Shown here: in pieces, positions 6,428-60,829 of the stretch | How the letters are laid out: each line of letters begins with the position of its first letter | Numbering within the stretch: position 1 is the first letter of the stretch | Origin: Escherichia phage ph0011 | Length of the DNA: 64,000 bases | Strand: one strand, 5' to 3' | Sequence record: OP557969.1 | The notes under the pieces: model-generated | The model's input: only the letters and a program-made list of their open reading frames with translations | Told to the model about the DNA's origin: nothing | Database searches by the model: none | Program-made: the position numbers and the translations under genes

Positions 6428-6567
6428 AGACGTTTCGTATGATGTATTCAAACGTACAATAAAACAATACTATATAACTTTTTATAATTGATATTTTTTA
6501 AAAAATACACAATCACAACGTGCTCCTTTTATTGGAATTTACCTTATTAATTATAGTTGAGGGGAAG

Positions 6568-8660: not shown

Positions 8661-9097
8661 GTTTAGTAAGTGCACTTGAACTGGCACACAAAATACACAA
8701 CTTCCATGATAAAATAAAAAGTGGGTTTTATGGTGATAACGTAAGTGAATTTGGTAATGAGTATTATCTATCAAGTTCAAATACATACGCTGATGATATT
8801 TTACTTATGGGTCATGATAAAGACAATACTATACAGTACTCTTCATGTAGTCAATATGCTAGTTTTATGGTATATATTCCAGGAACTAAGATTACTTTTG
8901 ACACATCAAATACACCTGTTGACTTCGGGGTACTTGATGGTCCATGGGGTACTGAAGAGTATTACTTCCAACAGAGTCTTATTTTTAGCCAAGAGATGCT
9001 TGATACCTTGGTTGTGTTGTGGTACTTTAAAGAATTGAATTTTGAACCATTCTTTCTTGACTGGGGAGCATGTGAGTATTTAAGTTCAGGAGAATAA
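8657..9097 (+). CDS. FQ-family paralog (long form)
   Basis: ATGA overlap; N-terminal MSLVSALELAHK; core GPWGTEEYYFQQSLIFS...WYFK. Confidence 0.7.
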   Translation: MSLVSALELAHKIHNFHDKIKSGFYGDNVSEFGNEYYLSSSNTYADDILLMGHDKDNTIQYSSCSQYASFMVYIPGTKITFDTSNTPVDFGVLDGPWGTEEYYFQQSLIFSQEMLDTLVVLWYFKELNFEPFFLDWGACEYLSSGE

Positions 9098-9099: not shown

Positions 9100-9567
9100 A
9101 TGTCATTGCGAAGTGCATTGAAAGAAGCAAAGAAGATCCATAATTACATGATTATGGTACAAGAAGGTTCCGTGCCTGGTGTATATAAAACATCTGATAC
9201 TGAATTTTTCGTAAAAGATCGAGATGATTATGATGAGTCAGAGATATGTGCAGAAACGTTAGTACTGCACATTGATACGGATGATACTGATGACTGTGAA
9301 TATCAGATGCACAATCAATACCTTAGTTATTATAGGGATGAAGATATTATAATTTACACTCCTGATTACGATGATGATAACATAATCATTCCGTATTCAG
9401 TTCTGGAAGGTCCATGGGATAGTGAAGAATATTATTTCCAGCAAAGTACTGTGTATAATGAAGATGTTTTAGATGTTATTGTAATTATGTGGTACTTTAA
9501 AAGTATTGATTCTGACAGTTTCTATTTCGATTATGAATACGTAGAGAATACTGTAGGGGGAAGATAA
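9100..9567 (+). CDS. FQ-family paralog (long form)
   Basis: ATG after AGGAG; N-terminal MSLRSALKEAKK; core GPWDSEEYYFQQSTVYN...WYFK. Confidence 0.7.
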   Translation: MSLRSALKEAKKIHNYMIMVQEGSVPGVYKTSDTEFFVKDRDDYDESEICAETLVLHIDTDDTDDCEYQMHNQYLSYYRDEDIIIYTPDYDDDNIIIPYSVLEGPWDSEEYYFQQSTVYNEDVLDVIVIMWYFKSIDSDSFYFDYEYVENTVGGR

Positions 9568-34981: not shown

Positions 34982-35240
34982 AGTTCTTATTGCTGAAACA
35001 ATGAATATGATTTATTTTATTACTACGGCACAGGATTTGTCTTATCCAGTGAAATCGTTACTTAGGTCAATGTATATTGATATTGTAAAAGAATATTATA
35101 AATCTAAACACAGAAGTATTATTAGTGTTTATCGTGATTATGAAAGGATTCGTATTTTATTCTGGAACAAGAACCGAGTTCGTGAGGAATGTGATCTAGT
35201 AGATTTTAAATTAGAGAATCTTTATTGTTACAAAATTTAA
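34962..35240 (+). CDS. small hypothetical protein
   Basis: In-frame ATG at 34962 after AAGGA. Confidence 0.5.
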   Translation: MTNTTNEVLIAETMNMIYFITTAQDLSYPVKSLLRSMYIDIVKEYYKSKHRSIISVYRDYERIRILFWNKNRVREECDLVDFKLENLYCYKI

Positions 35241-35296
35241 AAGATGATAAATATTTTACAAAAGAATGTTTTTTTAGAAAAAAAAGGATTTTGTAA

Positions 35297-36781
35297 ATGA
35301 AAGTATGTACGAATTTAAATGTTACTGGTGATATAACGTCTAATGGGATGACGTTAAGCAAGAATCATAATTATGAGAATTTTAGTGACCTACAAGAAAG
35401 ATGTACTAAAATGCTTTTACAATTTGATAAACCTGAAGTATACGATCCTGATATTACTATTACAATAACTACTAAAAATGTAAATTATACATATAAAGGA
35501 CCAATTGATGGTATGTGTGATATAGAAAATCCTTCATTGTATAAAATTTCCATGTATGTATACACTGACAAAGAGTATTTTATAAACGATGTACAATTAT
35601 CAGATGATGGTAGTTTTCATTTTTCTAAAACGAATAATGGCTCAAAACAATTTAGACTAATTAGAATATCTGATAATAAATGGATTGATACATTAGAATA
35701 TGCATTATTGACTAGAAGTTATATAATACCAGAAACTGAAGATTCGCAAGTTAGAAATACAATGAAAGATCGTTGTTACACATATGATCAAGCGGCAGTT
35801 GCTATTGCATTAATGGTACAAAACCACCCAGAGATGGATAGATATGTATATGGTTTGTGTCAATTGGTTGAGGAAAATGGTGGAATAAAATTTTTTGTTA
35901 ATAGGATATCGGCATTTTCCAATAGAGCATACTATAGAATGGGTAATGCTGCATGGGTATTATATGGATTAGCTTTTTACTTATGGAAATTCCCAGATGG
36001 GGTATATGCGAATTTGGCCCGTGAAAAACTTTTGTTAGGGTTAGAATGGGTATCAACTTTTAAAGTAACTACACCCGGTGATAAAAGAGAAGGTTTATAT
36101 ATGGGTGGAAAAGGAAAATTTATCAATAATGGTTCTCAATTTGACCCGAATTACATTGCTAGTTGGTGTGCAATGGAACACAATTTAGATCTTTGGTTTT
36201 TATTTGATCTATGCTCTGTTATTGGAATTCAGAATTATGATACAATAGCAAAGGAATTACATAATAATATAAATGATAAATTGTGGATAGAAAGTGAAGG
36301 ACGTTTTCGTCAAGGTGTACATGAAACAACAGATGATAATGCTGCTGCATTAGATCAATCATCATGGGGTGGTTTGTATTCTTTATATGCAGATGGTAAT
36401 GATACAAAAGCAGTAAAATGTCACAAATATATGGAACGTTTTATGTTTGGTACGTTGGAATGTGAGGGATATACGCCTTATAATAAATTATTTGGTTATC
36501 CAAATGCAGTACAAGGTGTATGGACTGAAGGAACTGCTGGTGTGGCTTTGTTTGAACGTGCATTGGGTAATGACAGAACTGCCGCAAAATTAATTGCTAA
36601 TTTGAAGCCTATATGTGACCCAGTTTATGGATATCGTGACTCATGTGATGACCCAGATTACGATGTTCTTCCAGATTGGCCTTCCTCGTGTAATACAGCA
36701 TGGATTATTCTGGCTATTAACCCACAAGGTTTCTGGAAAGTTGAAGCCCCACTGATGGATATTGGGCTTGTGAAATATTAA
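35297..36781 (+). CDS. large hypothetical protein, possible alpha/alpha-toroid (six-hairpin) glycoside-hydrolase-like fold
   Basis: ATG after AAGGA; 494 aa; repeated aromatic/Gly-rich segments (NAAWVLYGLAFY, LDQSSWGGLY, VWTEGTAGVALF, SCNTAWIILA); fold call is my pattern-based guess. Confidence 0.5.
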   Translation: MKVCTNLNVTGDITSNGMTLSKNHNYENFSDLQERCTKMLLQFDKPEVYDPDITITITTKNVNYTYKGPIDGMCDIENPSLYKISMYVYTDKEYFINDVQLSDDGSFHFSKTNNGSKQFRLIRISDNKWIDTLEYALLTRSYIIPETEDSQVRNTMKDRCYTYDQAAVAIALMVQNHPEMDRYVYGLCQLVEENGGIKFFVNRISAFSNRAYYRMGNAAWVLYGLAFYLWKFPDGVYANLAREKLLLGLEWVSTFKVTTPGDKREGLYMGGKGKFINNGSQFDPNYIASWCAMEHNLDLWFLFDLCSVIGIQNYDTIAKELHNNINDKLWIESEGRFRQGVHETTDDNAAALDQSSWGGLYSLYADGNDTKAVKCHKYMERFMFGTLECEGYTPYNKLFGYPNAVQGVWTEGTAGVALFERALGNDRTAAKLIANLKPICDPVYGYRDSCDDPDYDVLPDWPSSCNTAWIILAINPQGFWKVEAPLMDIGLVKY

Positions 36782-36793
36782 TTATAATAAAAA

Positions 36794-36825
36794 ATGAACA
36801 TATAAAAATATATGTTCATTTTTTT
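36794..36825 (+). terminator. rho-independent terminator
   Basis: ATGAACATATA-loop-TATATGTTCAT hairpin followed by T7. Confidence 0.6.
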
Positions 36826-36826
36826 A

Positions 36827-36854
36827 TGGACATTATTAATATTTGTGATATAAT
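36827..36854 (+). promoter_or_regulatory. sigma70-like early promoter with extended -10 (TGTGATATAAT)
   Basis: TGGACA-N16-TGaTATAAT directly downstream of the terminator. Confidence 0.5.
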
Positions 36855-36894
36855 ATTGGATAAGGAACAATAACTAACACAAGGAGTGTGGAAA

Positions 36895-37623
36895 GTGCTT
36901 GACCGTATCCGTTTTGCCACAGAGATGGCGAATGAATTAAACATGGCAAATTTTCAAATGTTAACATCAGTGATGGCTGAACATGCATGTGCTTATTCTG
37001 TAAGTGGTGTGCAGTGTGGTCAGGAGAATATGTTAGCAGATGTATATAGCGAAGTTCAAAGTAAACAATACAGTGTAAAGACGTACAAGGATAAGTTCGT
37101 TAGTCTTTATATGAATGAAGACATTTCAGAAGACCGCAAATATACTGATTTTATTATTGAACGAAGAGTATCAGGTGTATCTAATCCTAACGCACCAAGT
37201 GATGAAGTTTTTTCAGAAGTACTGAAAGATATATACGAAAATGAATTGAAAAGTAAGAATCATTACAATGTACGTGAAACTAACACTGTGCTCTTGGGAT
37301 ATGATGAAGACGATCAATATTATTATTTCCGTATGACAGAAGTCCCTTTTGAATACAAATCACCAAGTACTACTGCTGTAAAAGAATTTACCGAGAAAAG
37401 CAAGAACTACAAGAAACATGAAGGCAACCGTTGTAGTATAAATGGTTATAATGAAGATGGTGTTCATATATATGAATGGGTTCATCCTAATTGCCAGACA
37501 TATACCCGTTGCTTGAAGAAACGTTATAATTTAGAAGACAATGAATCCTTCTACTTTAAAGTTAAGAAACAAAGCTATACTCGCCCTGAAGATTCAGAAT
37601 TGATGGGTATGGTATATTTCTAA
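36895..37623 (+). CDS. hypothetical protein (start uncertain: GTG at 36895 or ATG at 36925)
   Basis: ORF track frame; AAGGAG at 36881-36886. Confidence 0.5.
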   Translation: MLDRIRFATEMANELNMANFQMLTSVMAEHACAYSVSGVQCGQENMLADVYSEVQSKQYSVKTYKDKFVSLYMNEDISEDRKYTDFIIERRVSGVSNPNAPSDEVFSEVLKDIYENELKSKNHYNVRETNTVLLGYDEDDQYYYFRMTEVPFEYKSPSTTAVKEFTEKSKNYKKHEGNRCSINGYNEDGVHIYEWVHPNCQTYTRCLKKRYNLEDNESFYFKVKKQSYTRPEDSELMGMVYF

Positions 37624-37632: not shown

Positions 37633-37914
37633 ATGGATTTTTACCTACACACATGGTCATACGAACAATACATTACATTATATCTTGAGATTATTAATAC
37701 TGATCCCAGATATGGTTGTGATTTTGCTGATATTATAAAAGAGTATGCAGATGAGTTTGAGTTTGTATATCTTGGCTCTGACCTATTCGTGAAGAGTGTA
37801 GGTAAAACCGGACGCATCACTGAGATTGATTATGATACTGTTAGTGTGAATTTCTATGTTGATTTTCCTTGTGATGGCGTTGATGGTGTATATTGTCTAT
37901 ATGAAATAATTTAA
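37633..37914 (+). CDS. hypothetical protein
   Basis: ATG after AAGGA; 93 aa. Confidence 0.6.
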   Translation: MDFYLHTWSYEQYITLYLEIINTDPRYGCDFADIIKEYADEFEFVYLGSDLFVKSVGKTGRITEIDYDTVSVNFYVDFPCDGVDGVYCLYEII

Positions 37915-37931
37915 ATTTTTAGGCCAGCGTT

Positions 37932-37955
37932 TGCTGGTCTTTTTTCGCAGGTACA
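37932..37955 (+). terminator. rho-independent terminator
   Basis: GGCCAGC-GTTT-GCTGGTC hairpin followed by T6. Confidence 0.6.
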
Positions 37956-38844: not shown

Positions 38845-39530
38845 TTAAAGATTTAGATAGAATTTTATATGTACTAAGGGGTGTGATTACATTGCATCCA
38901 CAGATTAATCGCATGGAGCGTGTATTTGAATTAAAATCAATAGAAACTCCATATTCACATATATCAAATGTAGTTGGATCATTCAGTACTGAAGACTCTC
39001 CATATGATATTTGTGTATGTGAAGTACAACCAAGTTCGGATATTGGATTTGCTATTTTTGATAAAAATCGAAATCTTATTAGTATGTTTCAGTGCAATAA
39101 TCCTTTTTGGAAAACATGCCTGTATCCAGAGTGGGCTATGCTTGATCCAACAAAGAGTAACATTAAAGTGTACGACTCTAAAAACAAAGAAGTCGTTATT
39201 GATTTGGATGAGTCAATGACTGAGGAAGAACACTTTCAGTTAATGATGTTGCGAGCTATGCCTGAATACAATGCAATGATTAACACTGTGAAATATATTA
39301 ATGATACTATGCAATCATTGCGTACACATGAGTTTTGTCATCCAGTATTGTATGAAAATTTAGATTTAGACTTCAGTACTATTAAATTTAAAGATAATGT
39401 TGTAAATTACATTCAAGAGAATGTTAAATTTGATTTTATTAATACTATGAATAATAATCCAAAAACAAATTTCAGGCATCAGTATAATGAATCGCTCTCT
39501 AATGGACGCGATACCAGTTGGTGGAAATAA
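38841..39530 (+). CDS. FQ-family paralog (outlier copy), probable TTG start
   Basis: TTG overlapping upstream TGA; core TEEEHFQLMMLRA. Confidence 0.5.
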   Translation: MIKDLDRILYVLRGVITLHPQINRMERVFELKSIETPYSHISNVVGSFSTEDSPYDICVCEVQPSSDIGFAIFDKNRNLISMFQCNNPFWKTCLYPEWAMLDPTKSNIKVYDSKNKEVVIDLDESMTEEEHFQLMMLRAMPEYNAMINTVKYINDTMQSLRTHEFCHPVLYENLDLDFSTIKFKDNVVNYIQENVKFDFINTMNNNPKTNFRHQYNESLSNGRDTSWWK

Positions 39531-39531
39531 T

Positions 39532-39795
39532 ATGAATATCCAAGATAGATTACAATTGTTGTGCACACTTGAACAAGCTGCTTATGAACTTGTTAATAAA
39601 ATCTCTGAAGAACTTCCCAAAGGAACTAGAGTTCGTGTTCGTGAAATGGATTATGTAACGGGTGAAATTGAAGAAAAAGTTTTAACAGTGGTTAAAGTAA
39701 CATACTATGAGTCAGAGCTATCAATTCAATGTAAGTCAGATAATGGTTACATTTCCTACTATGGCACTGATATAGAGATGGAGGTAATCAAATGA
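39532..39795 (+). CDS. small hypothetical protein
   Basis: In-frame ATG at 39532 after GGTGGA. Confidence 0.5.
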   Translation: MNIQDRLQLLCTLEQAAYELVNKISEELPKGTRVRVREMDYVTGEIEEKVLTVVKVTYYESELSIQCKSDNGYISYYGTDIEMEVIK

Positions 39796-40934
39796 CCCTT
39801 TTACAAATATATGAAGATTTGATGCACTTATGTAATACCCGTGAGGCTTTCTTTTATGTAGATCATAAAAGTCCTGCTGGTGGCACATATCGTGTATTCA
39901 GTTATCGACTAGCATCATATACTGATTTCATGCAACCGAATGCATTGGAAACCCGTGGTTCTATGTGGGAAATCGATGACGATGGCAACATGATACGTTG
40001 TGCATCACGTTGTATGAAAAAGTTCTTTAATGCTTACGAAAATCCTGCTACGATGTTCCCTGCTGATACCAAATGTGATGACATTGCAGTAGTGATGCCT
40101 AAGTTGGATGGTTCAATTATCAGTTCTTACCGTGATAATGATGGTATTATTCGTTGTAAATCACATACCTCATTGTATTCTGACCATGCAATTAACAGTA
40201 CTCGACTAATTAACGAGAACCAGAATTTGTATCAGTACATTGATGAAGCTGAACGTTTGGGTTACACGGTTAACATGGAGTACACAAGCCCAGAGTACCG
40301 AATCGTATTGCCATATCAGGTAGAACAACTATTTGTTCTAAACGTCCGTCATCGTGTAAGTGGTGAATTGTTGTGTGGTAAAGCATTACGCGAAAAGTTT
40401 CCTTGTCTTTCACAGTACAGCACCAATATGACAGGTAAAGATATTCATCACACGTTTCCGGTAAGAAATACATTTCGTGAAAGTGTTGAAGAAGTTCATA
40501 AAATGCTTGATATTGAGGGTTTTGTTTGTATTCTAAAAGATGGGACAATGTGTAAAATAAAGACGGATTGGTATAGTTCATTACATCTAACAAAAGACAG
40601 TATCATTATTGATTCACATTTGTTCGAAGCTGTGTTAAATGGTTCAAGTGACGACTTGAAACAATTATTCAGTACTGACGAATATGCTATGCAAAAGATA
40701 TTGAGAATGGAACAATTGGTATTTTCGTGCTATAATTCATTACAAGATGAGGTAGAAAACTTCGTCAATACACACAAGCACTTGGGACGAAAGGAATTCG
40801 CAATGAAGGTTCAGGAGTGTTTGACTAATGAACTAAATCGTCAGGGCTTGGCCTTTGCAATGTATAACAATAAGTATGTTGATTATAAAGAAACTCTTAT
40901 CAAATACATGAAAGTAGTACTAAAGGACTTTTAG
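39792..40934 (+). CDS. rnlA: RNA ligase 1 (T4 Rnl1/gp63-like)
   Basis: ATGA overlap after GAGG; 380 aa; N-terminal segment FFYVDHKSPAGGTYRVFSYRLASYTDFMQPNALETRGSMWEID closely parallels T4 Rnl1 as I recall it, including the adenylylation-site lysine context. Confidence 0.9.
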   Translation: MTLLQIYEDLMHLCNTREAFFYVDHKSPAGGTYRVFSYRLASYTDFMQPNALETRGSMWEIDDDGNMIRCASRCMKKFFNAYENPATMFPADTKCDDIAVVMPKLDGSIISSYRDNDGIIRCKSHTSLYSDHAINSTRLINENQNLYQYIDEAERLGYTVNMEYTSPEYRIVLPYQVEQLFVLNVRHRVSGELLCGKALREKFPCLSQYSTNMTGKDIHHTFPVRNTFRESVEEVHKMLDIEGFVCILKDGTMCKIKTDWYSSLHLTKDSIIIDSHLFEAVLNGSSDDLKQLFSTDEYAMQKILRMEQLVFSCYNSLQDEVENFVNTHKHLGRKEFAMKVQECLTNELNRQGLAFAMYNNKYVDYKETLIKYMKVVLKDF

Positions 40935-40966
40935 TATAATCTATAGCCTAAGCACAAGGAGAAGTG

Positions 40967-41221
40967 ATGGCTAAACCTAAGTATAGAAATGACGGTTCCC
41001 TTTCTCCAACAGAGTTCAGGAAGATACAAGAAGAAATCGATACATTACAGCACAAACGCTCTAAGAAAGGTGTGAAGATTAGTAAGAAACGAATCGAGAA
41101 TACTTTCGGTTGTAGTAGTACTGAATATAAAAAGAAAAGGAAACCGAAAGATGTTAGACCGAGAATATATGATATTACTCGTTATACATCAAGACGTGAA
41201 AATAAGTTTGATCCACTATAA
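40967..41221 (+). CDS. small basic hypothetical protein
   Basis: ATG after AAGGAG; Lys/Arg-rich 84 aa. Confidence 0.55.
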   Translation: MAKPKYRNDGSLSPTEFRKIQEEIDTLQHKRSKKGVKISKKRIENTFGCSSTEYKKKRKPKDVRPRIYDITRYTSRRENKFDPL

Positions 41222-41230
41222 GGAGTTCAT

Positions 41231-41461
41231 ATGAAAGTTGAAGTTCAGCATAGTATTGTTCAAGATATGTCGGTAGTGAAATTTCATTCTCTGAAAGATT
41301 ACTTCAGGTGTATCAAGTTTCTAGAAGAATCTCATTTACAGTGGACTCCATTGAAATACAGTTCATTTAATGATACAGCTAGTATTCGTTGTGATGAATC
41401 TGTACTTGTAAAAATTACAAAACGATTTGGGTTAGGTAAAATTAATGAGCACAGTAAATGA
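41231..41461 (+). CDS. small hypothetical protein
   Basis: ATG after AAGGAG. Confidence 0.55.
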   Translation: MKVEVQHSIVQDMSVVKFHSLKDYFRCIKFLEESHLQWTPLKYSSFNDTASIRCDESVLVKITKRFGLGKINEHSK

Positions 41462-41699
41462 CCTAAAATACTACAACCAAACTGCGGATACCTTTATTAC
41501 CCATTTATATGAAGAATTCAGTCGTATCCGCAATGAATATACTGGTAAATGTATTTTATATAGCTTTTATCATAGTGGTGAAATTGAACTTGCTTACATT
41601 ACTAAAGTGAAGTTTTCAGATGACTATCAATTACTCTTTGAATTAGACAATAGTTTCGTTATTGAAGCTAATTTGATAGTTGATGTACTAGATAAGTGA
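41445..41699 (+). CDS. small hypothetical protein
   Basis: ATG ORF 84 aa. Confidence 0.5.
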   Translation: MSTVNDLKYYNQTADTFITHLYEEFSRIRNEYTGKCILYSFYHSGEIELAYITKVKFSDDYQLLFELDNSFVIEANLIVDVLDK

Positions 41700-41705
41700 G
41701 GACAC

Positions 41706-42020
41706 ATGAATAAAGAACTTGCTCAAAAAGGCATTGATCAGTTAAAGTACATTGAAAAGGAACTAATAGAATCAGTTGAATTAATGGTCGAAGATTTCGT
41801 GTTTGATTTTAAGAAAACATTGATTGGATGTAAAGTCAAATGCTGGGACCATACTATCAGGGAATGGTTTAGTACTATAATCCTTGATGTTAAAGTATCG
41901 CGTACTGCTTTTGGTAACTTAGTAAATGGTGAATGCTTTGTATACACTGAATACAATAACGGAACAAGACACCTTTCAAAAGGATGGCACAGACTCGAAG
42001 ATGTAGAATTCATTGAGTAG
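41706..42020 (+). CDS. small hypothetical protein
   Basis: ATG after GAGGA. Confidence 0.55.
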   Translation: MNKELAQKGIDQLKYIEKELIESVELMVEDFVFDFKKTLIGCKVKCWDHTIREWFSTIILDVKVSRTAFGNLVNGECFVYTEYNNGTRHLSKGWHRLEDVEFIE

Positions 42021-42032
42021 TAAGGAGTAATA

Positions 42033-42965
42033 ATGCCGACTATCACACTAACAGTTGGTTTACCTGGATGTGGTAAAACAACATGGGCAGTACAAGAGAT
42101 TAAAAAAGCCAAATCCAAGACTATCAATATCAACCGTGATGATATTCGTGAATCGATGGCTGGGTCACATGATGCTTACAAATTCAATGATGCTAATGAG
42201 AAGTACGTAACTAATTTACAGTTCAGTGCAGCAAAATTAGCAGCAGAGAATGGTTGGAATATTATTGTATCCGACACAAACCTTAAACCACATTTCCGTG
42301 AACAATGGAAAATGTGGGCTAAAGATAATGGTTATGATTATAAAGAAAAGAACTTCTATGATGATTTTGTACCAAAGGAAGACCGTGGTGCAGATGTTCA
42401 TGAATTCTTTAAGATTAAAGAGTTTGTAAAACTTTGTAAGAAATATAACCTCCAGCGTGAGCGTTCAGTACAAGATAATATCATTGACACAATGGCAGAT
42501 ACGTACTATTATAGTAAGGCATTGCATATTGGTTACTATGGTAATTCTCGTGAAGAAGCGATTATCGTTGATATCGATGGAACTCTTGCTCATAAATGGA
42601 ACCGCAATCCATTTGATGAAAGTACAGTTCTCCAAGATACACCAGACGAAGAAGTTATTTTGTCTGTTATCGCCGAAGCAGTTTTTCATAAACGCAAGAT
42701 TATTGTCATGAGTGGTCGTACTGAAGGGTGTCGTGCTGACACAGAACAGTGGTTGAAGAATTGGGGTGTTCCCTACGATGCATTGTTTATGCGAGGCATT
42801 GATGATAAACGTCCCGATGATGTTGTTAAATTCGACCTGTACATGAAAAATGTGGTTGATCATTACGATGTTAAAAAAGTATATGATGACAGAGCACAAG
42901 TCGTATTCATGTGGCGTAAACTACTTGGATTGAAAGTGATGCAAGTTGCGGAAGGAAATTTTTAG
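42033..42965 (+). CDS. pseT: polynucleotide 5'-kinase/3'-phosphatase (T4 Pnk-like)
   Basis: ATG after AAGGAG; P-loop GLPGCGKTT in kinase domain; phosphatase DxDGT motif (VDIDGTL); collinear with T4 PseT as I recall it. Confidence 0.92.
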   Translation: MPTITLTVGLPGCGKTTWAVQEIKKAKSKTININRDDIRESMAGSHDAYKFNDANEKYVTNLQFSAAKLAAENGWNIIVSDTNLKPHFREQWKMWAKDNGYDYKEKNFYDDFVPKEDRGADVHEFFKIKEFVKLCKKYNLQRERSVQDNIIDTMADTYYYSKALHIGYYGNSREEAIIVDIDGTLAHKWNRNPFDESTVLQDTPDEEVILSVIAEAVFHKRKIIVMSGRTEGCRADTEQWLKNWGVPYDALFMRGIDDKRPDDVVKFDLYMKNVVDHYDVKKVYDDRAQVVFMWRKLLGLKVMQVAEGNF

Positions 42966-42973
42966 TACAAAAA

Positions 42974-42997
42974 GGGATCAGTATATGATCCCTTTTT
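42974..42997 (+). terminator. rho-independent terminator
   Basis: GGGATCA-GTATA-TGATCCC hairpin followed by T5. Confidence 0.65.
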
Positions 42998-43034
42998 CTT
43001 TTAAGGTACATTATAGTGAATGTAACAACACAAA

Positions 43035-45552: not shown

Positions 45553-45885
45553 ATGAAACATCTTGTACAATATAATCAGTACTTGATTTCATTACACAAA
45601 ATGAAAGATGATTTCTTTAGAAGTGCTGAGATTGAACTCGTTGGTAAGATAGTAAAATTTACTGACGAGTATATCAAAAGATACACTGACATAGATGATG
45701 ACCCAGAGTATGAATCATACTACCAGTACATAAATCAATATACTAGAATGCGAATTGTTGGAATTTTAAAATTCGGTATACGATTAGTTGCACATGTGGA
45801 ATTCATCAATTACGAAGCAATTGATGCAGCAGCCTTTGGGGATGAAATTAGTTTAGATCATCTTATACTAGTTGATGAGGAATAA
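45553..45885 (+). CDS. hypothetical protein
   Basis: ATG ORF 110 aa. Confidence 0.55.
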   Translation: MKHLVQYNQYLISLHKMKDDFFRSAEIELVGKIVKFTDEYIKRYTDIDDDPEYESYYQYINQYTRMRIVGILKFGIRLVAHVEFINYEAIDAAAFGDEISLDHLILVDEE

Positions 45886-46103: not shown

Positions 46104-46354
46104 TGTTTAACACAGACTATTCACATTTACGATATCTTATGTCTTTGGCTGATGATTTTATTAATGATTTGAAGCCTAAGTATATTGGACAGGAAGTAAG
46201 TTTGATAAACTCTAGGGGTTATGGAAAGTACATTATTACTGATATGTATATTAGCGGTGGAGAATGGCGTTTCAAAGTTAATACGTATCTTAAAGATGGT
46301 TCTTTTGCAGGTACACAAGTTACAAAACACACTAACATTATATGGTTGAAATAA
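46103..46354 (+). CDS. small hypothetical protein
   Basis: ATG at 46103 (TAATG overlap). Confidence 0.5.
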   Translation: MFNTDYSHLRYLMSLADDFINDLKPKYIGQEVSLINSRGYGKYIITDMYISGGEWRFKVNTYLKDGSFAGTQVTKHTNIIWLK

Positions 46355-46356
46355 TA

Positions 46357-47100
46357 ATGAAACATTTCTTAGAAGTTACAGTACCGGATGATAAAGATTT
46401 ATATATTGTTGGTGATTTACATGGTAATGGAAAACTGTGGGACGCGACTAAGAAAGAGTTCGGTGTCACCAACGAAGATTACGTGTTTTCTGTTGGTGAT
46501 GTTATTGACCGTGGTGACCAGAACTCTAAGCTTCTATTTGAATTCCTTTTCGGTGAAAACCGTTTTATGATTACTGGGAACCACGAGATGATGTGTGTTG
46601 ATTCTGAAACTCATCGTGACTGGTATCACTGTTGGGTCCAAAATGGTGGAGATAAGTTCATTGATGAAGTTGGGGTAACAGGCATTCAATTCTTTCGTCA
46701 GTACTTAAATGATCTCCCTATGATTATCCAAATCAATCACCGAGGATTGAAGATTGGGTTAGTTCATGCAGGTGTTCCATTGGAATATACAACATGGGAA
46801 CGTTTCGTTAATGGGACAAAATCACTTAGTGCTGATATAATTGAGAAGTGCTTGTGGGAACGTGATACATTTGACTACTGCAAGAAAAATAACACATATT
46901 ACGCCCCTAGACTTGATGGTATCCATTGCGTATTTAGTGGTCATACCGCAGTATCTGACCCACTCATTTATGGTAATCGTATTTGGATTGATAGTCAGTT
47001 TTTAACAGGTGATTTGACTCTTGCAACTCCACAAAGCGGTGGGATGAGATACTTACGTAAAGAAAAAGATGAGTACTCATTCAATCGTTTCAAAAGGTAA
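46357..47100 (+). CDS. metallophosphoesterase (Ser/Thr-phosphatase-like)
   Basis: Motifs GDLHG, GDVIDRG, GNHE characteristic of calcineurin-like phosphoesterases; start could also be the ATG at 46342. Confidence 0.75.
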   Translation: MKHFLEVTVPDDKDLYIVGDLHGNGKLWDATKKEFGVTNEDYVFSVGDVIDRGDQNSKLLFEFLFGENRFMITGNHEMMCVDSETHRDWYHCWVQNGGDKFIDEVGVTGIQFFRQYLNDLPMIIQINHRGLKIGLVHAGVPLEYTTWERFVNGTKSLSADIIEKCLWERDTFDYCKKNNTYYAPRLDGIHCVFSGHTAVSDPLIYGNRIWIDSQFLTGDLTLATPQSGGMRYLRKEKDEYSFNRFKR

Positions 47101-47376: not shown

Positions 47377-47604
47377 ATGAAAGTAATTCAAGTTATGGTA
47401 GAAAAATACCAAACTGAAGATGGTCGCATTTTTGATTCAGCAAAACAAGCTGAACATCATGAACGTATTATTTCTGGTACACGTAAAGTGTGTCCTACAT
47501 GTAATGGAACACAACAAGTACCGTCAGAGGATTACCGCAGCTTTTATGCTTGTCCACAGTGTGACGGTAAAGGTTACGTAGAAAAACAAGAGGTATGGAA
47601 ATGA
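47377..47604 (+). CDS. small zinc-ribbon protein
   Basis: ATG after AAGGA; CPTC ... CPQC cysteine pairs. Confidence 0.55.
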   Translation: MKVIQVMVEKYQTEDGRIFDSAKQAEHHERIISGTRKVCPTCNGTQQVPSEDYRSFYACPQCDGKGYVEKQEVWK

Positions 47605-48014
47605 AATTATATTGCTTAACTAATATGTATTGTCAAGGTGTCCAAGCTGGTATTCAAGCATTTCATGCTGGAGTTAAACTAATCAAAGAATATGAAGGTT
47701 CTTCGTTCAGTACTATGATTGATGAATGGTACAATGAGCATGAAACTATTGTAGTACTAAATGCGGGTGGACATGATAAATTAAATTCTTATTATAAAGA
47801 CCTTAACAAACAGGGAACAGTTCCGTTTGCCAAATTCAATGAAGCTGGATTGAATGATGCTATTACATGTATAGCAGTACTGTGTACATCTGAAATGGTT
47901 GAAGATATGTCTATTATGCGTATGAATCTTCCTGCTGGTGATCAGTTAATGCAGGTGAAATATGGATCATTATTTGACACATTAAAAGCAATTAGTACTA
48001 TGAGGACTATTTGA
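47601..48014 (+). CDS. hypothetical protein
   Basis: ATG at 47601 (ATGA overlap) 8 nt after AGAGG. Confidence 0.55.
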   Translation: MKLYCLTNMYCQGVQAGIQAFHAGVKLIKEYEGSSFSTMIDEWYNEHETIVVLNAGGHDKLNSYYKDLNKQGTVPFAKFNEAGLNDAITCIAVLCTSEMVEDMSIMRMNLPAGDQLMQVKYGSLFDTLKAISTMRTI

Positions 48015-49213
48015 TGGATTTTCCAGAGAAGTTATTTGTTGCACGTTCCTATATAAACCACAACCAAGTTAATGGTTATATTATCGATGCAACAAAATCA
48101 CACACAAAAGCATTCGAAACAAAGAAAGAAAGAGCTGAGTACTGGGCCAACAAGAACAAACTCCCATCGTTGTATATTGATAATGTACCAACTACAGGTT
48201 TTTGTGTAGTTGATAAATTGACAATTCATGCACGTGAAACATATTTCACTATCCGACATCCTGAAGGATTTGAATTTATGATTAGTTCCAAAAACATGAA
48301 TGATTTGATTATTAATAATGATATAATTAAAGGTGTTTTTGTTGACCCAATGTTTTTCAATAATAACTTAGAGTTGATCAATGGTAAAACAAAAGCATTT
48401 GCTAAGTTGGTTGATAAAGAAAATAAAAAAGAAAAACAAAAAGAAATTGTAGCAGGACTCAAAGTTGGTGATGGCTTCACTTATAACAAAGAAGATTACT
48501 ATTACTGTGGTAAAGTACATGCAATTTGTATAAAGAAAACTAAAGAATTTGCATACCCAGATAAAAGTTCAGTATATCATTTAGTGTTTAATAGTTCTCG
48601 TGGAACTTATGCTTTGAATCAACGTTTGGATAATTACAAACTGGAACCTCGTGCTCTTTTGAATAAGAAGACTACAACAGATGAAGAAATTAAACTTGCT
48701 AATGAATTTTGGCAAAGCTATAGAACAAACAGACATAACCCATTAGGTGAATCTAACATTCCAGTACTGGTACACAATAAATCATTTAAAGCAAAAGACC
48801 TTAAAATTAAATACGAAGAAATAAATGTTGATGATCTTATGAACAATGGACGTTTCAACGAAAACGTACCATTCATGACTAAAGATAATGAACAATCTTA
48901 TCGCGTATTTTTTGGTGTAAGTAATAATACAACACGTAGTTATTACGGGCGTAGTGGAGATTACACTATCCATTACAATGATAAATTTGAACGATTTAGT
49001 GCATATCCAGTTCAAATAGATGATAATGGAATTATGGTAATGGATGTTGATATTAACACACACTCTTCATTCAGTACATGGAATGGTCATCGTTCTCCAT
49101 TCTTTCCACCAAATGAACGCAAAACATCAAGTACTCGTTACTATCAAGATAAGCCGTGTCACGTACAACTAGCAATCAGCAATCCACTTTACATTGGAAA
49201 GTATTATCTATAA
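48014..49213 (+). CDS. hypothetical protein (399 aa)
   Basis: ATG at 48014 overlapping upstream TGA, 8 nt after GAGGA. Confidence 0.65.
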   Translation: MDFPEKLFVARSYINHNQVNGYIIDATKSHTKAFETKKERAEYWANKNKLPSLYIDNVPTTGFCVVDKLTIHARETYFTIRHPEGFEFMISSKNMNDLIINNDIIKGVFVDPMFFNNNLELINGKTKAFAKLVDKENKKEKQKEIVAGLKVGDGFTYNKEDYYYCGKVHAICIKKTKEFAYPDKSSVYHLVFNSSRGTYALNQRLDNYKLEPRALLNKKTTTDEEIKLANEFWQSYRTNRHNPLGESNIPVLVHNKSFKAKDLKIKYEEINVDDLMNNGRFNENVPFMTKDNEQSYRVFFGVSNNTTRSYYGRSGDYTIHYNDKFERFSAYPVQIDDNGIMVMDVDINTHSSFSTWNGHRSPFFPPNERKTSSTRYYQDKPCHVQLAISNPLYIGKYYL

Positions 49214-49224
49214 AGGAATATACA

Positions 49225-50643
49225 ATGAGCATTTTAGCAATTATTGAAAGCATTAAAAATACTAGTAGTACACTAGGCAAAAAAGCTATCCTTGAACAAA
49301 ATAAAGATAACTTAACTTTACAAAAAGTACTGAAATATACTCTCGACCCTTCAATTGTAAGTGGCTATAAGAAACTCCCTGCCGCTGATGACGTAGATCA
49401 ACATATGACGTTAGATGAAGCAATTGATAAGCTAGAATGCATTTACAAGCGTAGCTTGACAGGAAATGCGGGGCGTGATTTCATTGCTTCAGTACTGGGT
49501 TCAGTATCAGAAGATGATCAGGAAGTTCTCCGTAAAATGCTCACTAAGAACCTTGATTGTGGTATCCAAGAAAAGAACTGCAATGATGTGTTTGGTAAAG
49601 GATTCATCAAAGACGAACCATATATGCGTTGTTCTTTGATTGACAAAAAGACTGCAAAGAACATTAACTTCAAAGACTATGGCTATGCAGTCTCTGAGGT
49701 GAAAATGGATGGTCAGTACTTGAACCACGTTGTCATTAATGGTTCATTAACTTCTACATCCCGTAATGGTAAACTCTACGACTTCCTGGGTTGTCGTGAT
49801 GGTGAGATGGCAGGTCTTGCTCACATCATCCAAAGTAAAGATGAACGTTTTAGTAGTGGTGTAGTCTTTATGGGTGAAGGTGTAGTACTGGATACTGATG
49901 GAGAAACCATTCTCCCGCGTACTACAGGTAATGGTATTATTCAGAAAGCTGGAAAAGATTCAATCACTCAAAGTGAAGCAATGCGTACTGTATTCGTTCT
50001 ATGGGATGTTGTTCCATATGATGCATTCAGTGAAGGTGTATGGAATGTAAAACGTAAAGAACGCCGCGAGATCTTAGTTGGTGCAATCAATGAACTCGGT
50101 AGTGAATTTGTTCGTATGGTTGGGTTCCGTAAAGTTAACAACATCAAAGAAGCATTTGAGTACAACAGTGAACTGATGAACAAAGGTGAAGAAGGTTCAG
50201 TACTGAAATGTGAAGATGGTATCTGGAAATCTCATACTTCTCCTAAGCAGTTGAAAATGAAACTTAAGATGCAATTGGATTTGCGTATTGTTGGTTTCAA
50301 TGAAGGTGAAGGTAAGCGTAAAGGTAGCCTTGGTTCTTTACAACTGGAAAGTGCATGTGGTACACTAAAAGTAAATGTAGGTACAGGTATCCGTGAAAAA
50401 GATGCCGAATGGACGTTTAAAACCATTTGGGAAAGAATGCAAGAACTCATTGGTAAAGTAGTAACCGTGGAGTGCAATGATATAGTACAAGATAAGCGTA
50501 CTGGCGAACCATCACTATTTTTACCTGTGTTTATTGAATTTAGATTTGACAAAAACACTTGCGACGATTATACTCGTATCTTAGAAATTCGTGATAGTGC
50601 AGTTGAAGTGTTTTCAAACAGTATTATTGAAGTTTTAGGTTAA
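49225..50643 (+). CDS. 30: ATP-dependent DNA ligase (T4 gp30-like)
   Basis: ATG at 49225 after AAAGGAA; N-terminal KKAILEQNKDN and active-site KMDG (Kx-DG) motif; overall collinear with T4 DNA ligase as I recall it. Confidence 0.9.
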   Translation: MSILAIIESIKNTSSTLGKKAILEQNKDNLTLQKVLKYTLDPSIVSGYKKLPAADDVDQHMTLDEAIDKLECIYKRSLTGNAGRDFIASVLGSVSEDDQEVLRKMLTKNLDCGIQEKNCNDVFGKGFIKDEPYMRCSLIDKKTAKNINFKDYGYAVSEVKMDGQYLNHVVINGSLTSTSRNGKLYDFLGCRDGEMAGLAHIIQSKDERFSSGVVFMGEGVVLDTDGETILPRTTGNGIIQKAGKDSITQSEAMRTVFVLWDVVPYDAFSEGVWNVKRKERREILVGAINELGSEFVRMVGFRKVNNIKEAFEYNSELMNKGEEGSVLKCEDGIWKSHTSPKQLKMKLKMQLDLRIVGFNEGEGKRKGSLGSLQLESACGTLKVNVGTGIREKDAEWTFKTIWERMQELIGKVVTVECNDIVQDKRTGEPSLFLPVFIEFRFDKNTCDDYTRILEIRDSAVEVFSNSIIEVLG

Positions 50644-50662
50644 CCATTTATTGGAGGTAATT

Positions 50663-51454
50663 ATGAAATTTGTCGTAACATCTGATGTACACGGTAGTAC
50701 TGATTACCTCCATAGTGGGGATTACAGCGATACAGTACTGATTATTGCGGGAGACTTCGATGAAGTTAAACGAAGTCGTTATCGTACTGGTATTGAATCA
50801 CTGTGTAAGCAGTTCAAGAATGTAGTTCTGGTTCCAGGAAACCATGAGTATTATGGTTCAAACATTCACAAAACGCATCGAGTACTGTCCGATATGCAAG
50901 ATGAGATTCCAAATTTCATCTTTTTGCAAAACAAATTTGTATGGCTGGATGGTGTACTGCTCGTTGGTAGCACACTATGGACTGACTTTGATAAAGGCAA
51001 TGCACTGGTTAAGTTTGATGCTCAACAAAAGATGAATGATTATAAACACATTCGTCATGGAACAACATCAGAACCGTGGAAACGTAAACTCAAACCTGAT
51101 GATGTTGAGTTCATGCATTATCAGGATAAACAATTTATCAAAAATTCAGTTGATACAGTTCGTCTAATGAATGATAATGATATCAAGGTTGTGGTGGTAA
51201 CACATCATGCACCAAGTTATCAGAGTGTATCTCCGAGATACAAGAATGACTCACTGAATGGATGTTATTGTTCTGATATGGACCAGTACATCGAAGATTT
51301 GGGTGCTGATGTTTGGATTCATGGTCACGTTCATAGTAGCTTTGACTACCACATTGGTAAGACACGTATCATTTGTAATCCACGAGGCTATGAATCGTAC
51401 AGTGGTGCTTGTGAGAATTTTGATTACAATCCAAAATTTGTAGTTGAAATCTAA
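50663..51454 (+). CDS. metallophosphoesterase
   Basis: ATG after GGAGG; motifs SDVHG, GDFDE, GNHE, GHVH typical of the calcineurin-like superfamily. Confidence 0.75.
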   Translation: MKFVVTSDVHGSTDYLHSGDYSDTVLIIAGDFDEVKRSRYRTGIESLCKQFKNVVLVPGNHEYYGSNIHKTHRVLSDMQDEIPNFIFLQNKFVWLDGVLLVGSTLWTDFDKGNALVKFDAQQKMNDYKHIRHGTTSEPWKRKLKPDDVEFMHYQDKQFIKNSVDTVRLMNDNDIKVVVVTHHAPSYQSVSPRYKNDSLNGCYCSDMDQYIEDLGADVWIHGHVHSSFDYHIGKTRIICNPRGYESYSGACENFDYNPKFVVEI

Positions 51455-52301: not shown

Positions 52302-52997
52302 ATGGTTGAACAATTCAATTTTGGTGGTTATGCTAATGGTGAAGTAAGTAACATTTCTATTCCATATGTAGTTGAGAAAGTTAATGGTTCAGAACGTACA
52401 TATGATCTAGCATCTCGTATGATGCAAGACCGTATCATTTTCCTTGATACTGACTTCAATGACCAAATGGCACATATCATCAAACAACAATTGGTGTGGT
52501 TAGACTCACAAGGTGATTCCCCTATTACATTCTATATTAGCTCACCGGGCGGTTCAGTACACGCAGGATTGGGTATTGCAGATGTTGCCAAGTCTTGTGT
52601 TTCACCAATTCGTACTGTAGTAATGGGTTATGCAGCTTCAATGGGGTGTTATACTCAATCGGTAATTGGTACTAAAGGTTTTCGTTTAGGTGGTAAGCGT
52701 TCTTACTTTATGTGTCATCAAGTAAGTTCTGGCACACAAGGTTTAATTACCGACCAGAAGATTTCACTTAAACATTCTGATGAATTGAATACACTATTGA
52801 CCAAAGAAATCGCAGAAGCAGTAGGTGTTTCTCATGAACAACTACTGAAAGATGCAGACCGTGATTTGTGGTTGAATGCTGAAGAAGCACTCGAATATGG
52901 TGAAAAAGGATTTATCGATGGTATTATCCTTGGACCACGCAACGAGAAAGGTCAATACCTAGTCAAGCGTCGTGGTGGTGTTGAAGAGTGGGTGTAA
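52302..52997 (+). CDS. ClpP-like serine protease (peptidase S14 family)
   Basis: ATG after GAGGAAAA; segments RIIFLDTDFND, ISSPGGSVHAG, GYAASMGC (Ser), MCHQ (His) align with canonical ClpP. Confidence 0.85.
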   Translation: MVEQFNFGGYANGEVSNISIPYVVEKVNGSERTYDLASRMMQDRIIFLDTDFNDQMAHIIKQQLVWLDSQGDSPITFYISSPGGSVHAGLGIADVAKSCVSPIRTVVMGYAASMGCYTQSVIGTKGFRLGGKRSYFMCHQVSSGTQGLITDQKISLKHSDELNTLLTKEIAEAVGVSHEQLLKDADRDLWLNAEEALEYGEKGFIDGIILGPRNEKGQYLVKRRGGVEEWV

Positions 52998-53875: not shown

Positions 53876-54400
53876 ATGAAATATACACAACTAAACAACA
53901 ATGATACTAATATATGGTTAGGAAATATATCTAAAACACTTGAATTGGTTAAATTCACACTACAAAAATCGGTCGATATTGAAATTAATATTAAGAAAGA
54001 AATATTAAAACATTATCATAAAAATAAATTTTACAAGTTTATTTCTAAATTAATCTATGGGTTATATGATATTGAAGATATTTGTATTGGGTACAGTACT
54101 GGTATTTGTTTCACTACTGATGGTATAATGAATGATTTAAATTTTCGACTAACCCGCGAAGAACAAGATTTTCGTATATTTTGTGATAATATCATGAATG
54201 AAGATAAAATCCAATTTGTGATTGAATTGAGTCAGATATGGTCTGTATATGCAGACAAACCATTCGAAATTAATGAATCAGATATATTAAACTATATTCG
54301 AATAATGAAAATTCATGATTTATGTAAAAACGCATTACTAAGTATTGGAGCCTATGATGAAGCATACGACGTGGTTAAAGATAGCAGAAGTGGTTGCTGA
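53876..54400 (+). CDS. hypothetical protein
   Basis: ATG after GAGGA; 174 aa; 3' end overlaps the cd start by about 44 nt in another frame. Confidence 0.5.
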   Translation: MKYTQLNNNDTNIWLGNISKTLELVKFTLQKSVDIEINIKKEILKHYHKNKFYKFISKLIYGLYDIEDICIGYSTGICFTTDGIMNDLNFRLTREEQDFRIFCDNIMNEDKIQFVIELSQIWSVYADKPFEINESDILNYIRIMKIHDLCKNALLSIGAYDEAYDVVKDSRSGC

Positions 54401-54836
54401 AGAAAGTAAATGTCTTTCTCAAAAAGTTGGGTGTGTGATTGTTAAAAATAACCGAGTATTGAGTACTGGTTATAATGGTACTCCATCTAAACAACCTAAT
54501 TGTTGTGATGTTAATCAACATTTAGTTAAGAATGGTCGTTTTCAAGACTGGATTAGTGATGAAGCAAAGCATGAACACCATGAGTGGAGTAATATTCATG
54601 AAATACATGCAGAAATGAATGCACTGTTATATAGTTCTCCGACTGAGCGTCAAGGTTCAACACTTTACACAACACTCCAACCGTGTTATACTTGTTCTAA
54701 ATTGATAGCGGGGAGTGGTGTTTCTCGTGTAATTTATCAAAAAAGTTATCCTCGTACTCCACCAGAGGCTATTAAAGTACTGGAAGATGCTGGGATTATT
54801 GTAAATTGCATTTATGATAAGGATCTTGACAAATGA
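54357..54836 (+). CDS. cd: dCMP deaminase
   Basis: ATG 6 nt after GGAG; zinc-binding motifs HAEMNAL and PCYTCSKLI (HAE...PCxxC) and ESKC N-terminal segment as in T4 Cd; the ATG at 54354 is an alternative start. Confidence 0.88.
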   Translation: MKHTTWLKIAEVVAEESKCLSQKVGCVIVKNNRVLSTGYNGTPSKQPNCCDVNQHLVKNGRFQDWISDEAKHEHHEWSNIHEIHAEMNALLYSSPTERQGSTLYTTLQPCYTCSKLIAGSGVSRVIYQKSYPRTPPEAIKVLEDAGIIVNCIYDKDLDK

Positions 54837-58329: not shown

Positions 58330-58935
58330 ATGAAACTATTCTTGAAAGAGATTGTACAAACCGTTGTTTTAATCGCTGCATTAAATTTTCCAGCAGCGGC
58401 AGAAGTTTCAAAAAAAGCATCTGTTCTTCTATTAAATGAACAGGTTGTATCAATGGATGGTGAACTAAATGATAATACGGTACAAGAAGTAGAGCAGTTG
58501 TGGAAAGAAAAAAGATTTAAAATTTTAACAATTACATCACCTGGGGGTGATTTTGATGCTGGTATTAAAATGGCAAATTTTGTTAGAGACAATGGTATAA
58601 ATTTAATTGTTTCTAAATATTGCAATTCGGCATGTACTGTGGTATTCTTTAGTGTATCCCCAGAAAAGCGATATATGACAAATCAATCAGTACTGGGATT
58701 GCATAATATTTCAATCAAAAGTAACGTTAAAGATATGGATCATACTTTCGTATCTGTTAGACAACTATCATCATTTACTGAAGAAATGGCAACAAAAGTA
58801 GGATTTTTATTTACACTATATTCAGCTAATGGTATTCCACCTAGCATTCTATATAAAGTTAGTCGTTCACGTGGTGAAGATGTTGTTATCTTAACAAAAA
58901 CAGACCTAATAAATTACGGTTCAGTCAATCCATGA
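58330..58935 (+). CDS. putative secreted ClpP/SppA-fold serine peptidase-like protein
   Basis: ATG after GAGG; N-terminal signal-peptide-like hydrophobic segment; ITSPGGDFDAG and CNSACTVVFF resemble the ClpP/S49 SPGG and Ser regions. Confidence 0.45.
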   Translation: MKLFLKEIVQTVVLIAALNFPAAAEVSKKASVLLLNEQVVSMDGELNDNTVQEVEQLWKEKRFKILTITSPGGDFDAGIKMANFVRDNGINLIVSKYCNSACTVVFFSVSPEKRYMTNQSVLGLHNISIKSNVKDMDHTFVSVRQLSSFTEEMATKVGFLFTLYSANGIPPSILYKVSRSRGEDVVILTKTDLINYGSVNP

Positions 58936-60076: not shown

Positions 60077-60829
60077 ATGATATCAGAAAAATTCATAAGT
60101 AATGAGGGAAACAAGAGATTACTTATCATCTCAGGAGCAGGTCTTTCCGTTGAAAGTGGTATGGACCCATTTCGTTTCGATGATGGCCTATGGGATACAT
60201 TTAAAATTAATGATGTATGTAATATTGCAAATTTAGATACAAAATATCATATTGTTCATTCGTTTTATAACACGCTGCGTGTTAAACTGGGTCAATGTGA
60301 ACCAAATGCAATGCATTATTTTATAAAATCATTAGAGGAACAATATGGTGATTGTTTCCTTCATATGACTTCAAATATGGATGATCTTTACACCCGTATT
60401 GGCGGTAAAGAACTTAAACTTCATGGTAATTTATGTGAAGTGATAGAAAATTATAGTATTAATGGTGATGATTACAACATTGTTAACTGTGGTTATGAGC
60501 CATATATCCCAAAACATGATATTTTTGCTAAACCAAATGTAGTGATGATTGGTGAGTATCATCGTTATGTAGATGGTGTACGCCTACCAATATATGAAGA
60601 ACGAAATAATGTCTTGAAATCCCTTGATGAAAATGATACAGTTATTGTTATTGGTAGCAGCGATACTGTTCTTGTATGGTCCCGATTGGTAGCATCATTG
60701 CCATGTTATAGTGTCAATGTTAATATTAGAAAGAATGATAATGATTTTTTGTTTAATGAAAAAATTATCAAGCCAGCAACCAAAGCAATACCACAACTAG
60801 AGACTATAATTAAGGAACGTATGAAATGA
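60077..60829 (+). CDS. Sir2-like (sirtuin family) protein
   Basis: ATG after AAGGA; LLIISGAGLSVESGMDPFR (GAGxS.ESG..FR), LHGNL (catalytic His), VVMIGE and TVIVIGSS motifs; canonical Zn CxxC pairs not evident. Confidence 0.78.
   Translation: MISEKFISNEGNKRLLIISGAGLSVESGMDPFRFDDGLWDTFKINDVCNIANLDTKYHIVHSFYNTLRVKLGQCEPNAMHYFIKSLEEQYGDCFLHMTSNMDDLYTRIGGKELKLHGNLCEVIENYSINGDDYNIVNCGYEPYIPKHDIFAKPNVVMIGEYHRYVDGVRLPIYEERNNVLKSLDENDTVIVIGSSDTVLVWSRLVASLPCYSVNVNIRKNDNDFLFNEKIIKPATKAIPQLETIIKERMK

Follow-up and report, generated by a model that had tools for sequence, protein, structure and literature searches.

Does a jumbo coliphage carry the enzymes with which phage T4 mends broken RNA, and does it carry them in the arrangement of T4? 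The question arises for Escherichia phage ph0011 (sequence record OP557969.1), of which we analysed a stretch of 64,000 nucleotides, called here the window. An earlier note had proposed that the genes rnlA and pseT, coding for homologues of T4 RNA ligase 1 (Rnl1) and of the T4 polynucleotide kinase/phosphatase (Pnk), lie at positions 39792-42965 with four small genes between them, and that their order relative to DNA ligase and cd reveals a rearrangement. Both homologues are indeed present at exactly these coordinates, with family and structure matches in agreement, and they very probably form an RNA healing-and-sealing cassette of a Rak2-like phage, a reading that is drawn from homology with T4. 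The rearrangement is a different matter, to which we return below.

Nucleotide similarity and taxonomy place the phage in the genus Asteriusvirus, among the Rak2-like jumbo coliphages: it is not a relative of T4. A 5-kb region is about 90% identical to Asteriusvirus G17, Sharanji, 121Q, PBECO4, UE-S1 and others, with genomes of 350-385 kb, and even the nearest records show about 10% nucleotide divergence from the window. In these relatives both genes are already annotated, one as RNA ligase or RnlA, the other as polynucleotide kinase.

The gene rnlA occupies positions 39792-40934 of the + strand and encodes a protein of 380 amino acids, of the family of the ATP-dependent RNA ligase T4 Rnl1, in which an adenylyltransferase domain is joined to the C-terminal domain specific to Rnl1. 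The open reading frame (ORF) matches the Pfam family RNA_lig_T4_1 with 57.6 bits (cut-off 28.3) and, at residues 268-379, the family PF20819, T4_Rnl1_C, with a sequence-level score of 62.8 bits (cut-off 27, E=4.9e-17). The NCBIfam equivalog TIGR02308, "T4 RnlA family RNA ligase", gives 298 bits (cut-off 242.25) and is covered from position 2 to position 361 of its 373; the match to PHROG 562 extends over the full length (E=6e-109), and the top solved structures are those of T4 Rnl1, 2c5u and 5tt6 (E=2.4e-58). These matches confirm the ORF, as far as families and profiles can tell, as a true, full-length member of the Rnl1 family. An assignment to the Rnl2 or Rnl4 type is not supported: the ligase falls in the Rnl1 family, and there is no Rnl4-type ligase among the window ORFs that were scanned.

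The residues of the active site lead to the same family. T4 positions are counted here on the sequence of NC_000866, and the columns are those of an alignment of 150 sequences: the search of 1.84 billion proteins yields 2,920 relatives of Rnl1, of which 148 representatives, one for each cluster at 50% identity, were aligned with the window protein and T4. Residues R55, K77 and F78/F79 of the window protein correspond to R54, K75 and F76/F77 of T4, the residues of the N-terminal subdomain that contact ATP; R54 and K75 are essential in T4 Rnl1 (PMC6379707). Motif I, of the form KxDG, reads K104-L-D106-G107, its T4 counterparts are K99, D101 and G102, and K104 is the predicted lysine of AMP attachment. 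Then follow K123 and S124 (T4 K117 and S118) and, in motifs III, IV and V, E163, E242, G243, K255 and K257 (T4 E159, E227, G228, K240 and K242). The conserved catalytic columns are invariant or nearly so, the column of G102 for example in 149 of the 150 sequences. The gene is also under purifying selection, with a ratio of nonsynonymous to synonymous substitution rates (dN/dS) of 0.07.

The gene pseT, or pnk, lies at 42033-42965 on the + strand and encodes a protein of 310 amino acids, a predicted bifunctional polynucleotide 5'-kinase and 3'-phosphatase. Its two halves match the Pfam families AAA_33 (53.3 bits, cut-off 27) and HAD_PNKP (146.6 bits, cut-off 27.6), and the protein belongs to PHROG 505 (E=2e-95). 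The residues of the kinase are kept: the P-loop G9LPGCGKT16, with K15 and T16 (S16 in T4), and D36 and R39, which stand for T4 D35 and R38. So are those of the HAD phosphatase: D180-I-D182-G-T, R191, R229, D262 and D286 correspond to T4 D165, D167, R176, R213, D254 and D278. The dN/dS of the gene ranges from 0.06 to 0.10. Compared to T4, the kinase domain contains a clade-specific insertion of about 20 amino acids, at residues ~109-131 (42357-42425 in the window); the insertion is even longer in Xanthomonas phage XaC1.

The top structure for this protein is T4 Pnk, 1ltq (E=6.4e-39), and the next is Pnkp1 of Capnocytophaga, 4xrp (E=5e-28). The likeness to the bacterial Pnkp/Hen1 systems, of which the Pnkp1-Rnl-Hen1 proteins of Capnocytophaga are an example, lies in the common architecture of kinase and HAD domains in Pnkp1, but these systems differ in that neither a Hen1 methyltransferase nor their Rnl4-type ligase is found among the window ORFs scanned. 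Sequence and structure matches thus confirm the predicted protein as a Pnk of the T4 type, not a bacterial Pnkp. The earlier note had named Rnl2 and the bacterial Pnkp as the best matches that would speak against its claim; the best matches are in fact T4 Rnl1 and T4 Pnk.

What would such a pair do? In the scheme suggested by T4, a host ribotoxin, for example an anticodon nuclease of the PrrC or RloC type, would cut tRNA. The HAD domain of Pnk (D180/D182) would take off the 3' phosphate, and its P-loop domain (K15) would phosphorylate the 5'-OH; Rnl1, adenylylated on K104, would then pass its AMP to the 5'-phosphate, giving AppRNA, and the break would be sealed. The Rnl1-type C-terminal domain would steer the ligase to broken tRNA loops: in T4 this domain biases the ligase to tRNA loops, and gives it specificity for the anticodon loop (PMC6379707). 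What we infer from the sequence is that the enzymes are active, that tRNA is their substrate, which host nuclease is involved and that the genes are co-transcribed; a role in countering PrrC would be putative in the same sense. 

Published work on other jumbo phages goes in this direction. In the study of phage CBB, rnlA and the DNA ligase gp30 are described as homologues of T4 genes, and a role in tRNA repair is proposed for rnlA (PMC5259590); in the comparison of 224 jumbo phages, ligases of the types Rnl1, Rnl2 and RtcB, together with PNK-HAD enzymes, are seen as anti-ribotoxin RNA repair (PMC7824862). The reading proposed here agrees with the picture given there of jumbo phages rich in means to counter what the host directs at the translation apparatus (PMC7824862). 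Each of the alternatives that are weighed in the following paragraphs is less well supported than healing and sealing of RNA.

Both enzymes are encoded in one co-directional run of genes, closed by a strong terminator directly behind pnk. This intrinsic terminator, at 42969-43003 on the + strand, has a 12-bp stem, AAAAAGGGAUCA / UGAUCCCUUUUU, followed by CUUUU; the inverted repeat is present, the predicted folding energy is -17.8 kcal/mol (z = -5.0), and none of 200 shuffled sequences is as stable. A scan with a consensus terminator missed it, since the pairing of A with U carries the stem on into the T run; UE-S1 and Munch each have a terminator annotated at the equivalent site after pnk. On the other side, a GC-rich hairpin with a T-run (GGCCAGC...GCUGGUC, 37917-37945) directly follows the gene at 37633-37914, and UE-S1 also has an annotated terminator there. 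This hairpin may bound the transcription unit of rnlA and pseT on its upstream side.

Several observations weigh against the repair of tRNA by an active pair. At motif Ia, the window Rnl1 has S124-H125 in place of S118-K119 of T4, the signature basic residue of the motif, a lysine, being replaced by a histidine; in the alignment this column holds K in 142 of the 150 sequences, R in 4, H in only 3 and N in one. In Pnk, the segment around the lid arginine of T4, R126, is ambiguous or unaligned in pairwise, multiple and profile alignments, and R142, which is invariant in the clade, is one residue out of register with it. In the window as a whole, a scan for sigma-70 promoters finds 58 sites when 53 are expected, which is not above chance, and the window contains no tRNA gene, no Rfam match, no host nuclease and no Stp-like activator.

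The histidine is common to the proteins of Eneladusvirus, of the metagenomic contigs L011 and L012, and of the more distant contig L014, whose protein P0007 is 44% identical. In T4 Rnl1, K119 is said to have been found necessary for RNA adenylylation by Wang et al. in 2003. The basic side chain that marks motif Ia contacts the 5'-phosphate of the RNA (PMC6379707). It could then be imagined that what maintains Rnl1 is chiefly a role other than catalysis, or an altered one, for example the attachment of tail fibres as in T4 gp63, and that the change of K119 to His is the mark of a relaxed or modified chemistry: the change extends throughout the clade, and some relatives carry the annotation "RNA ligase and tail fiber protein attachment catalyst". 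However, all other catalytic residues are conserved, the dN/dS of the gene is that of a strongly constrained sequence, and a histidine can still supply a positive or hydrogen-bonding group. Moreover, the His variant is tightly linked to Pnk, to the point that the two genes overlap in L014, which speaks for their working together in one enzymatic pathway. We hold such a change of role to be highly improbable. Because of its low dN/dS and the conservation of all the other catalytic residues, the window Rnl1 is most likely active, with the histidine filling the basic role. A natural swap of lysine for histidine at motif Ia, in a whole sub-clade under purifying selection, might be of interest to RNA-ligase enzymologists.

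We now turn to the arrangement of the genes. In its two repair enzymes the window resembles T4: RnlA (gp63) and PseT have the same families, domain architectures and best structure matches in the Protein Data Bank (PDB), and they align over their full length, with 38% identity for each protein in global alignment and 34-37% in tblastn. In both phages, rnlA lies upstream of pseT in the same orientation, here on the + strand, at a distance of about 1.1 kb, with four small genes in between. The earlier note had the four small genes of the window and the co-orientation of the pair right, but missed that T4 has four small genes of its own. The differences are the histidine of motif Ia and the insertion in Pnk, as well as the genome, which in the case of the window is that of a jumbo phage of ~350 kb from another lineage. 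The small genes differ too: alc and pseT.1-3 of T4 are unrelated to those of the window, and a search for homologues with phmmer --max yields none.

Further downstream the two maps part. The DNA ligase of the window, ATP-dependent and similar to gp30 of T4, is encoded at 49222-50643 on the + strand (the ORF spans 49156-50643, and the length of the UE-S1 gene makes 49222 the likely start); it matches Pfam DNA_ligase_A_M, and T4 gp30 by phmmer with E=2.3e-47. The dCMP deaminase, homologous to cd, is encoded at 54345-54836, also on the + strand, with E=2.1e-21 for Pfam dCMP_cyt_deam_1 and 4.2e-37 for T4 Cd by phmmer. The window therefore reads rnlA, pseT, ligase, cd, whereas T4 reads rnlA, pseT, cd, ligase, and the distances are much larger: the four genes are spread over 15 kb and have between them a NinI-like Ser/Thr metallophosphatase (46342-47100), a weakly supported Pth2-like peptidyl-tRNA hydrolase (47595-48014; Pfam E=2.5e-6, below the NCBIfam cut-off), both between pseT and the ligase, a second metallophosphoesterase just after the ligase (50651-51454) and a ClpP gene. 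The phosphatase and a protein of 400 amino acids (48011-49213) are conserved beside the ligase in relatives.

It is tempting to call this difference in order a rearrangement in the lineage of the phage, as the earlier note did, but this reads too much into it. In the direction of transcription, the segment of T4 runs denA, rnlA, alc, pseT.3, pseT.2, pseT.1, pseT, cd.5-cd.1, cd, 31.2, 31.1, 31, rIII, 30.9-30.1, 30. The window has homologues for only 4 of these 28 genes, namely rnlA, pseT, cd and 30, and its order is conserved in the Rak2-like clade; the phage, as we saw, is not a relative of T4, and there is no outgroup to polarise the comparison. Judging from the genomes at hand, the Rak2-like clade has kept rnlA, pseT, ligase and cd in an order ancestral to the clade, whose difference from T4 is unpolarised.

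How much of the cassette is kept from one genus to the next? We compared seven lineages: the window, Eneladusvirus, RaK2, Munch, XaC1 and the metagenomic contigs L011 and L012. The linkage of rnlA with pnk is kept in all six relatives. Annotated cassettes in Rak2-like phages (rnlA and pseT of RaK2, genes 438 and 443 of 121Q, UE-S1_389 and UE-S1_394, CBB_83) code for orthologues with 56-96% amino acid identity, in the same layout and with the terminator at the same place; they differ only in the genes of the variable slots, where the genes that intervene number 3 to 5. Both the pair and the way it is laid out are thus known and annotated in the genus, and the observation, though correct, is an ordinary one: for this reason its interest is low, and its main value is the correct annotation of a classical RNA-repair pair of Rnl1 and Pnk in a Rak2-like jumbo coliphage.

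A longer order, from Dam through rnlA, pnk and the phosphatase to the DNA ligase, is shared by Eneladusvirus and a metagenomic relative, whose compact contig reads Dam, a 243-amino-acid protein, Rnl1, a small basic protein, a gene X, Pnk, Metallophos, a protein of 353 amino acids and the ligase. This suggests a second alternative, in which the pair belongs to a broader module of nucleic-acid end processing, together with the two metallophosphoesterases, the Pth2-like hydrolase and the DNA ligase; its substrates would be several, such as damaged mRNA or rRNA, DNA 3'-phosphate ends and phage transcripts, and the pair would not be dedicated to tRNA cut by anticodon nucleases. T4 Pnk acts on DNA as well as on RNA ends, and the backbone of Dam, 243-amino-acid protein, Rnl1, basic protein, Pnk, Metallophos, 353-400-amino-acid protein and DNA ligase, conserved even in so compact a relative, is found in the window and in Eneladusvirus as well. 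On the other hand, that genes lie within some 10 kb of one another says little about a functional link where early genes are so dense, and the domain specific to Rnl1, on which tRNA-loop specificity depends in T4 (PMC6379707), is retained. We consider a general end-processing module unlikely. There remain the genes that separate rnlA and pseT.

The four ORFs between rnlA and pseT all lie on the + strand. Each is preceded by a Shine-Dalgarno-like site, each is an annotated coding sequence in UE-S1, and each is under purifying selection in comparison with relatives, with dN/dS of 0.07-0.19; for these three reasons we take them to be real genes. The first of them, at 40967-41221 (the ORF begins at 40964/40967), codes for a basic protein of 84 amino acids, counted from ATG, with an isoelectric point of 10.2 and 25 residues K or R, that belongs to phrog_15306. 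Its AlphaFold2 model consists of a long helix, residues 14-45, and a short one, with a mean predicted local distance difference test score of 79.6. Its dN/dS is 0.13-0.16. The second, at 41231-41461, codes for a conserved protein of 76 amino acids with a predicted ββαββα fold, whose conservation about equals that of the repair enzymes.

Both proteins are restricted to the clade. Homologues of the basic protein come from 55 phage records, all of them Rak2-like, and form 64 protein clusters; those of the 76-amino-acid protein come from 70 phage records and form 27 clusters. The gene of the basic protein directly follows the 3' end of rnlA in all seven lineages, with homologues of 57-97 amino acids, and six of the seven have that of the 76-amino-acid protein between rnlA and pnk, L011 being without it. 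The other intervening genes vary in number from none to three and occupy two slots.

It is natural to ask whether these two proteins serve the repair enzymes as dedicated subunits or regulators, in a system of four components. Their constant position and the purifying selection on both speak in its favour. However, neither protein has a recognisable functional domain in searches of Pfam, PHROG and NCBIfam, a conserved position within a single clade may simply be inherited synteny, and, beside L011 with its missing gene, there is the distant relative L014, in which no gene separates a His-Rnl1 from a Pnk. We consider a four-component system quite unlikely. The same contig bears on a related proposal, that the Rak2-like cassette is a distinct sub-type in which Rnl1 with its histidine works with accessory small proteins, which might be adaptors that bind tRNA, regulators or inhibitors of a host ribotoxin. 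Since rnlA and pnk overlap in L014, with no small gene between, the small proteins are, on the evidence of gene order, not necessary companions of the His variant, and we regard the sub-type as very doubtful. L014 likewise weakens the proposal that the basic protein makes up for the change of K119 to His. To judge from these layouts, the cassette seems to go back to a simple pair of rnlA and pnk, into which the small genes were inserted later. Even when the pair alone is taken as the repair unit, two small proteins kept inside it across genera could be a point for experiment, though neither they nor the histidine of motif Ia alter the general conclusion.

The other two genes of the interval are more variable. 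The gene at 41445-41699 (+) codes for an acidic protein of 84 amino acids without PHROG or Pfam match; it occupies a variable slot, is annotated in UE-S1, with a dN/dS of 0.19 against that genome, and is missing from the Asteriusviruses of the fEgEco12 type and from other genera. The gene directly upstream of pseT, at 41706-42020 (+), codes for an Asteriusvirus-specific protein of 104 amino acids (phrog_31355, dN/dS 0.16), and is strongly diverged between subgroups of the genus: in fEgEco12 its place is taken by a diverged homologue, g185 (E=1.3e-17).

This last gene has distant paralogues nearby. One is the small gene upstream of rnlA, at 39532-39795 (+), whose stop overlaps the start of rnlA; it codes for 87 amino acids and belongs to phrog_28139 (E=1e-46), with dN/dS of 0.13-0.29. 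Another is the ORF at 45553-45885. Through transitive links, the three form a single family of small proteins with fEgEco12 g185 and with RaK2 ORF463, which sits upstream of rnlA in RaK2. A hidden Markov model (HMM) of the family, seeded with 41706-42020, g185, ORF463 and 39532-39795, adds 45553-45885, and no decoy falls under the threshold.

Other candidates were tried and set aside. A large paralogue family of the form "helix plus β-barrel", suggested by eye, is not borne out: an all-against-all BLASTP shows no paralogy near the cassette, and an HMM seeded on 43192/46028 does not rise above shuffled decoys. The only marginal match of a T4 gene near the cassette, T4 Cd.2 to the ORF at 39487-39795, with E=0.004 in a tiny database, is taken as chance. 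The antisense ORFs within rnlA and pseT, at 40270-40593, 41738-42133 and 42465-42899, have no credible family matches.

Upstream of the cassette, the gene at 36886-37623 (+) codes for a protein of 245 amino acids without match in Pfam, NCBIfam or PDB; it is conserved very strongly from genus to genus, with phmmer matches in Eneladusvirus (E=3e-113) and in RaK2 (2e-107), and in L011 its counterpart lies directly upstream of rnlA. Just before it, an ORF of 494 amino acids at 35297-36781 (+) matches "tail fiber protein" in PHROGs with E=5.7e-184. The insertion that contains it measures about 1.6 kb (flanks 35240-36830) and is absent from this site in the Asteriusvirus relatives found in the phage collection, where only the flanks match; in six records, among them WPEC5, TH47 and fEgEco12, the flanks are about 410 bp apart. 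The protein is best matched by the tail protein that a lambdoid Stx2k prophage encodes, with 56% identity over 95%, and the gene is followed by a hairpin and a T-run at ~36795-36826. The insertion looks like a horizontally acquired cassette of the moron type in a region of early genes.

The remainder of the window holds several other groups of genes. Between 1330 and 20113, BLASTP delineates two families of about 10 tandemly dispersed paralogues each. Members of the first have about 150 amino acids, as at 8190-8660, 8657-9097 and 9100-9567; those of the second have about 105-190, mostly 105-140, as at 6520-6945, 6942-7301 and 7298-7663. One member of each was tested against Pfam, and neither has a domain there. 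At 55357-58029, the only large gene of the minus strand interrupts the run of + genes: it codes for a protein of 890 amino acids with at least 9 Ig-like repeats of the Big_2 type (Pfam E=9e-136). Finally, positions 52302-52997, 58330-58935, 60077-60829 and 62071-63510 hold two ClpP-like genes, one with a strong match and one with a weak match, that are paralogues by BLASTP, a protein of the SIR2 family and a PIN-PhoH fusion.

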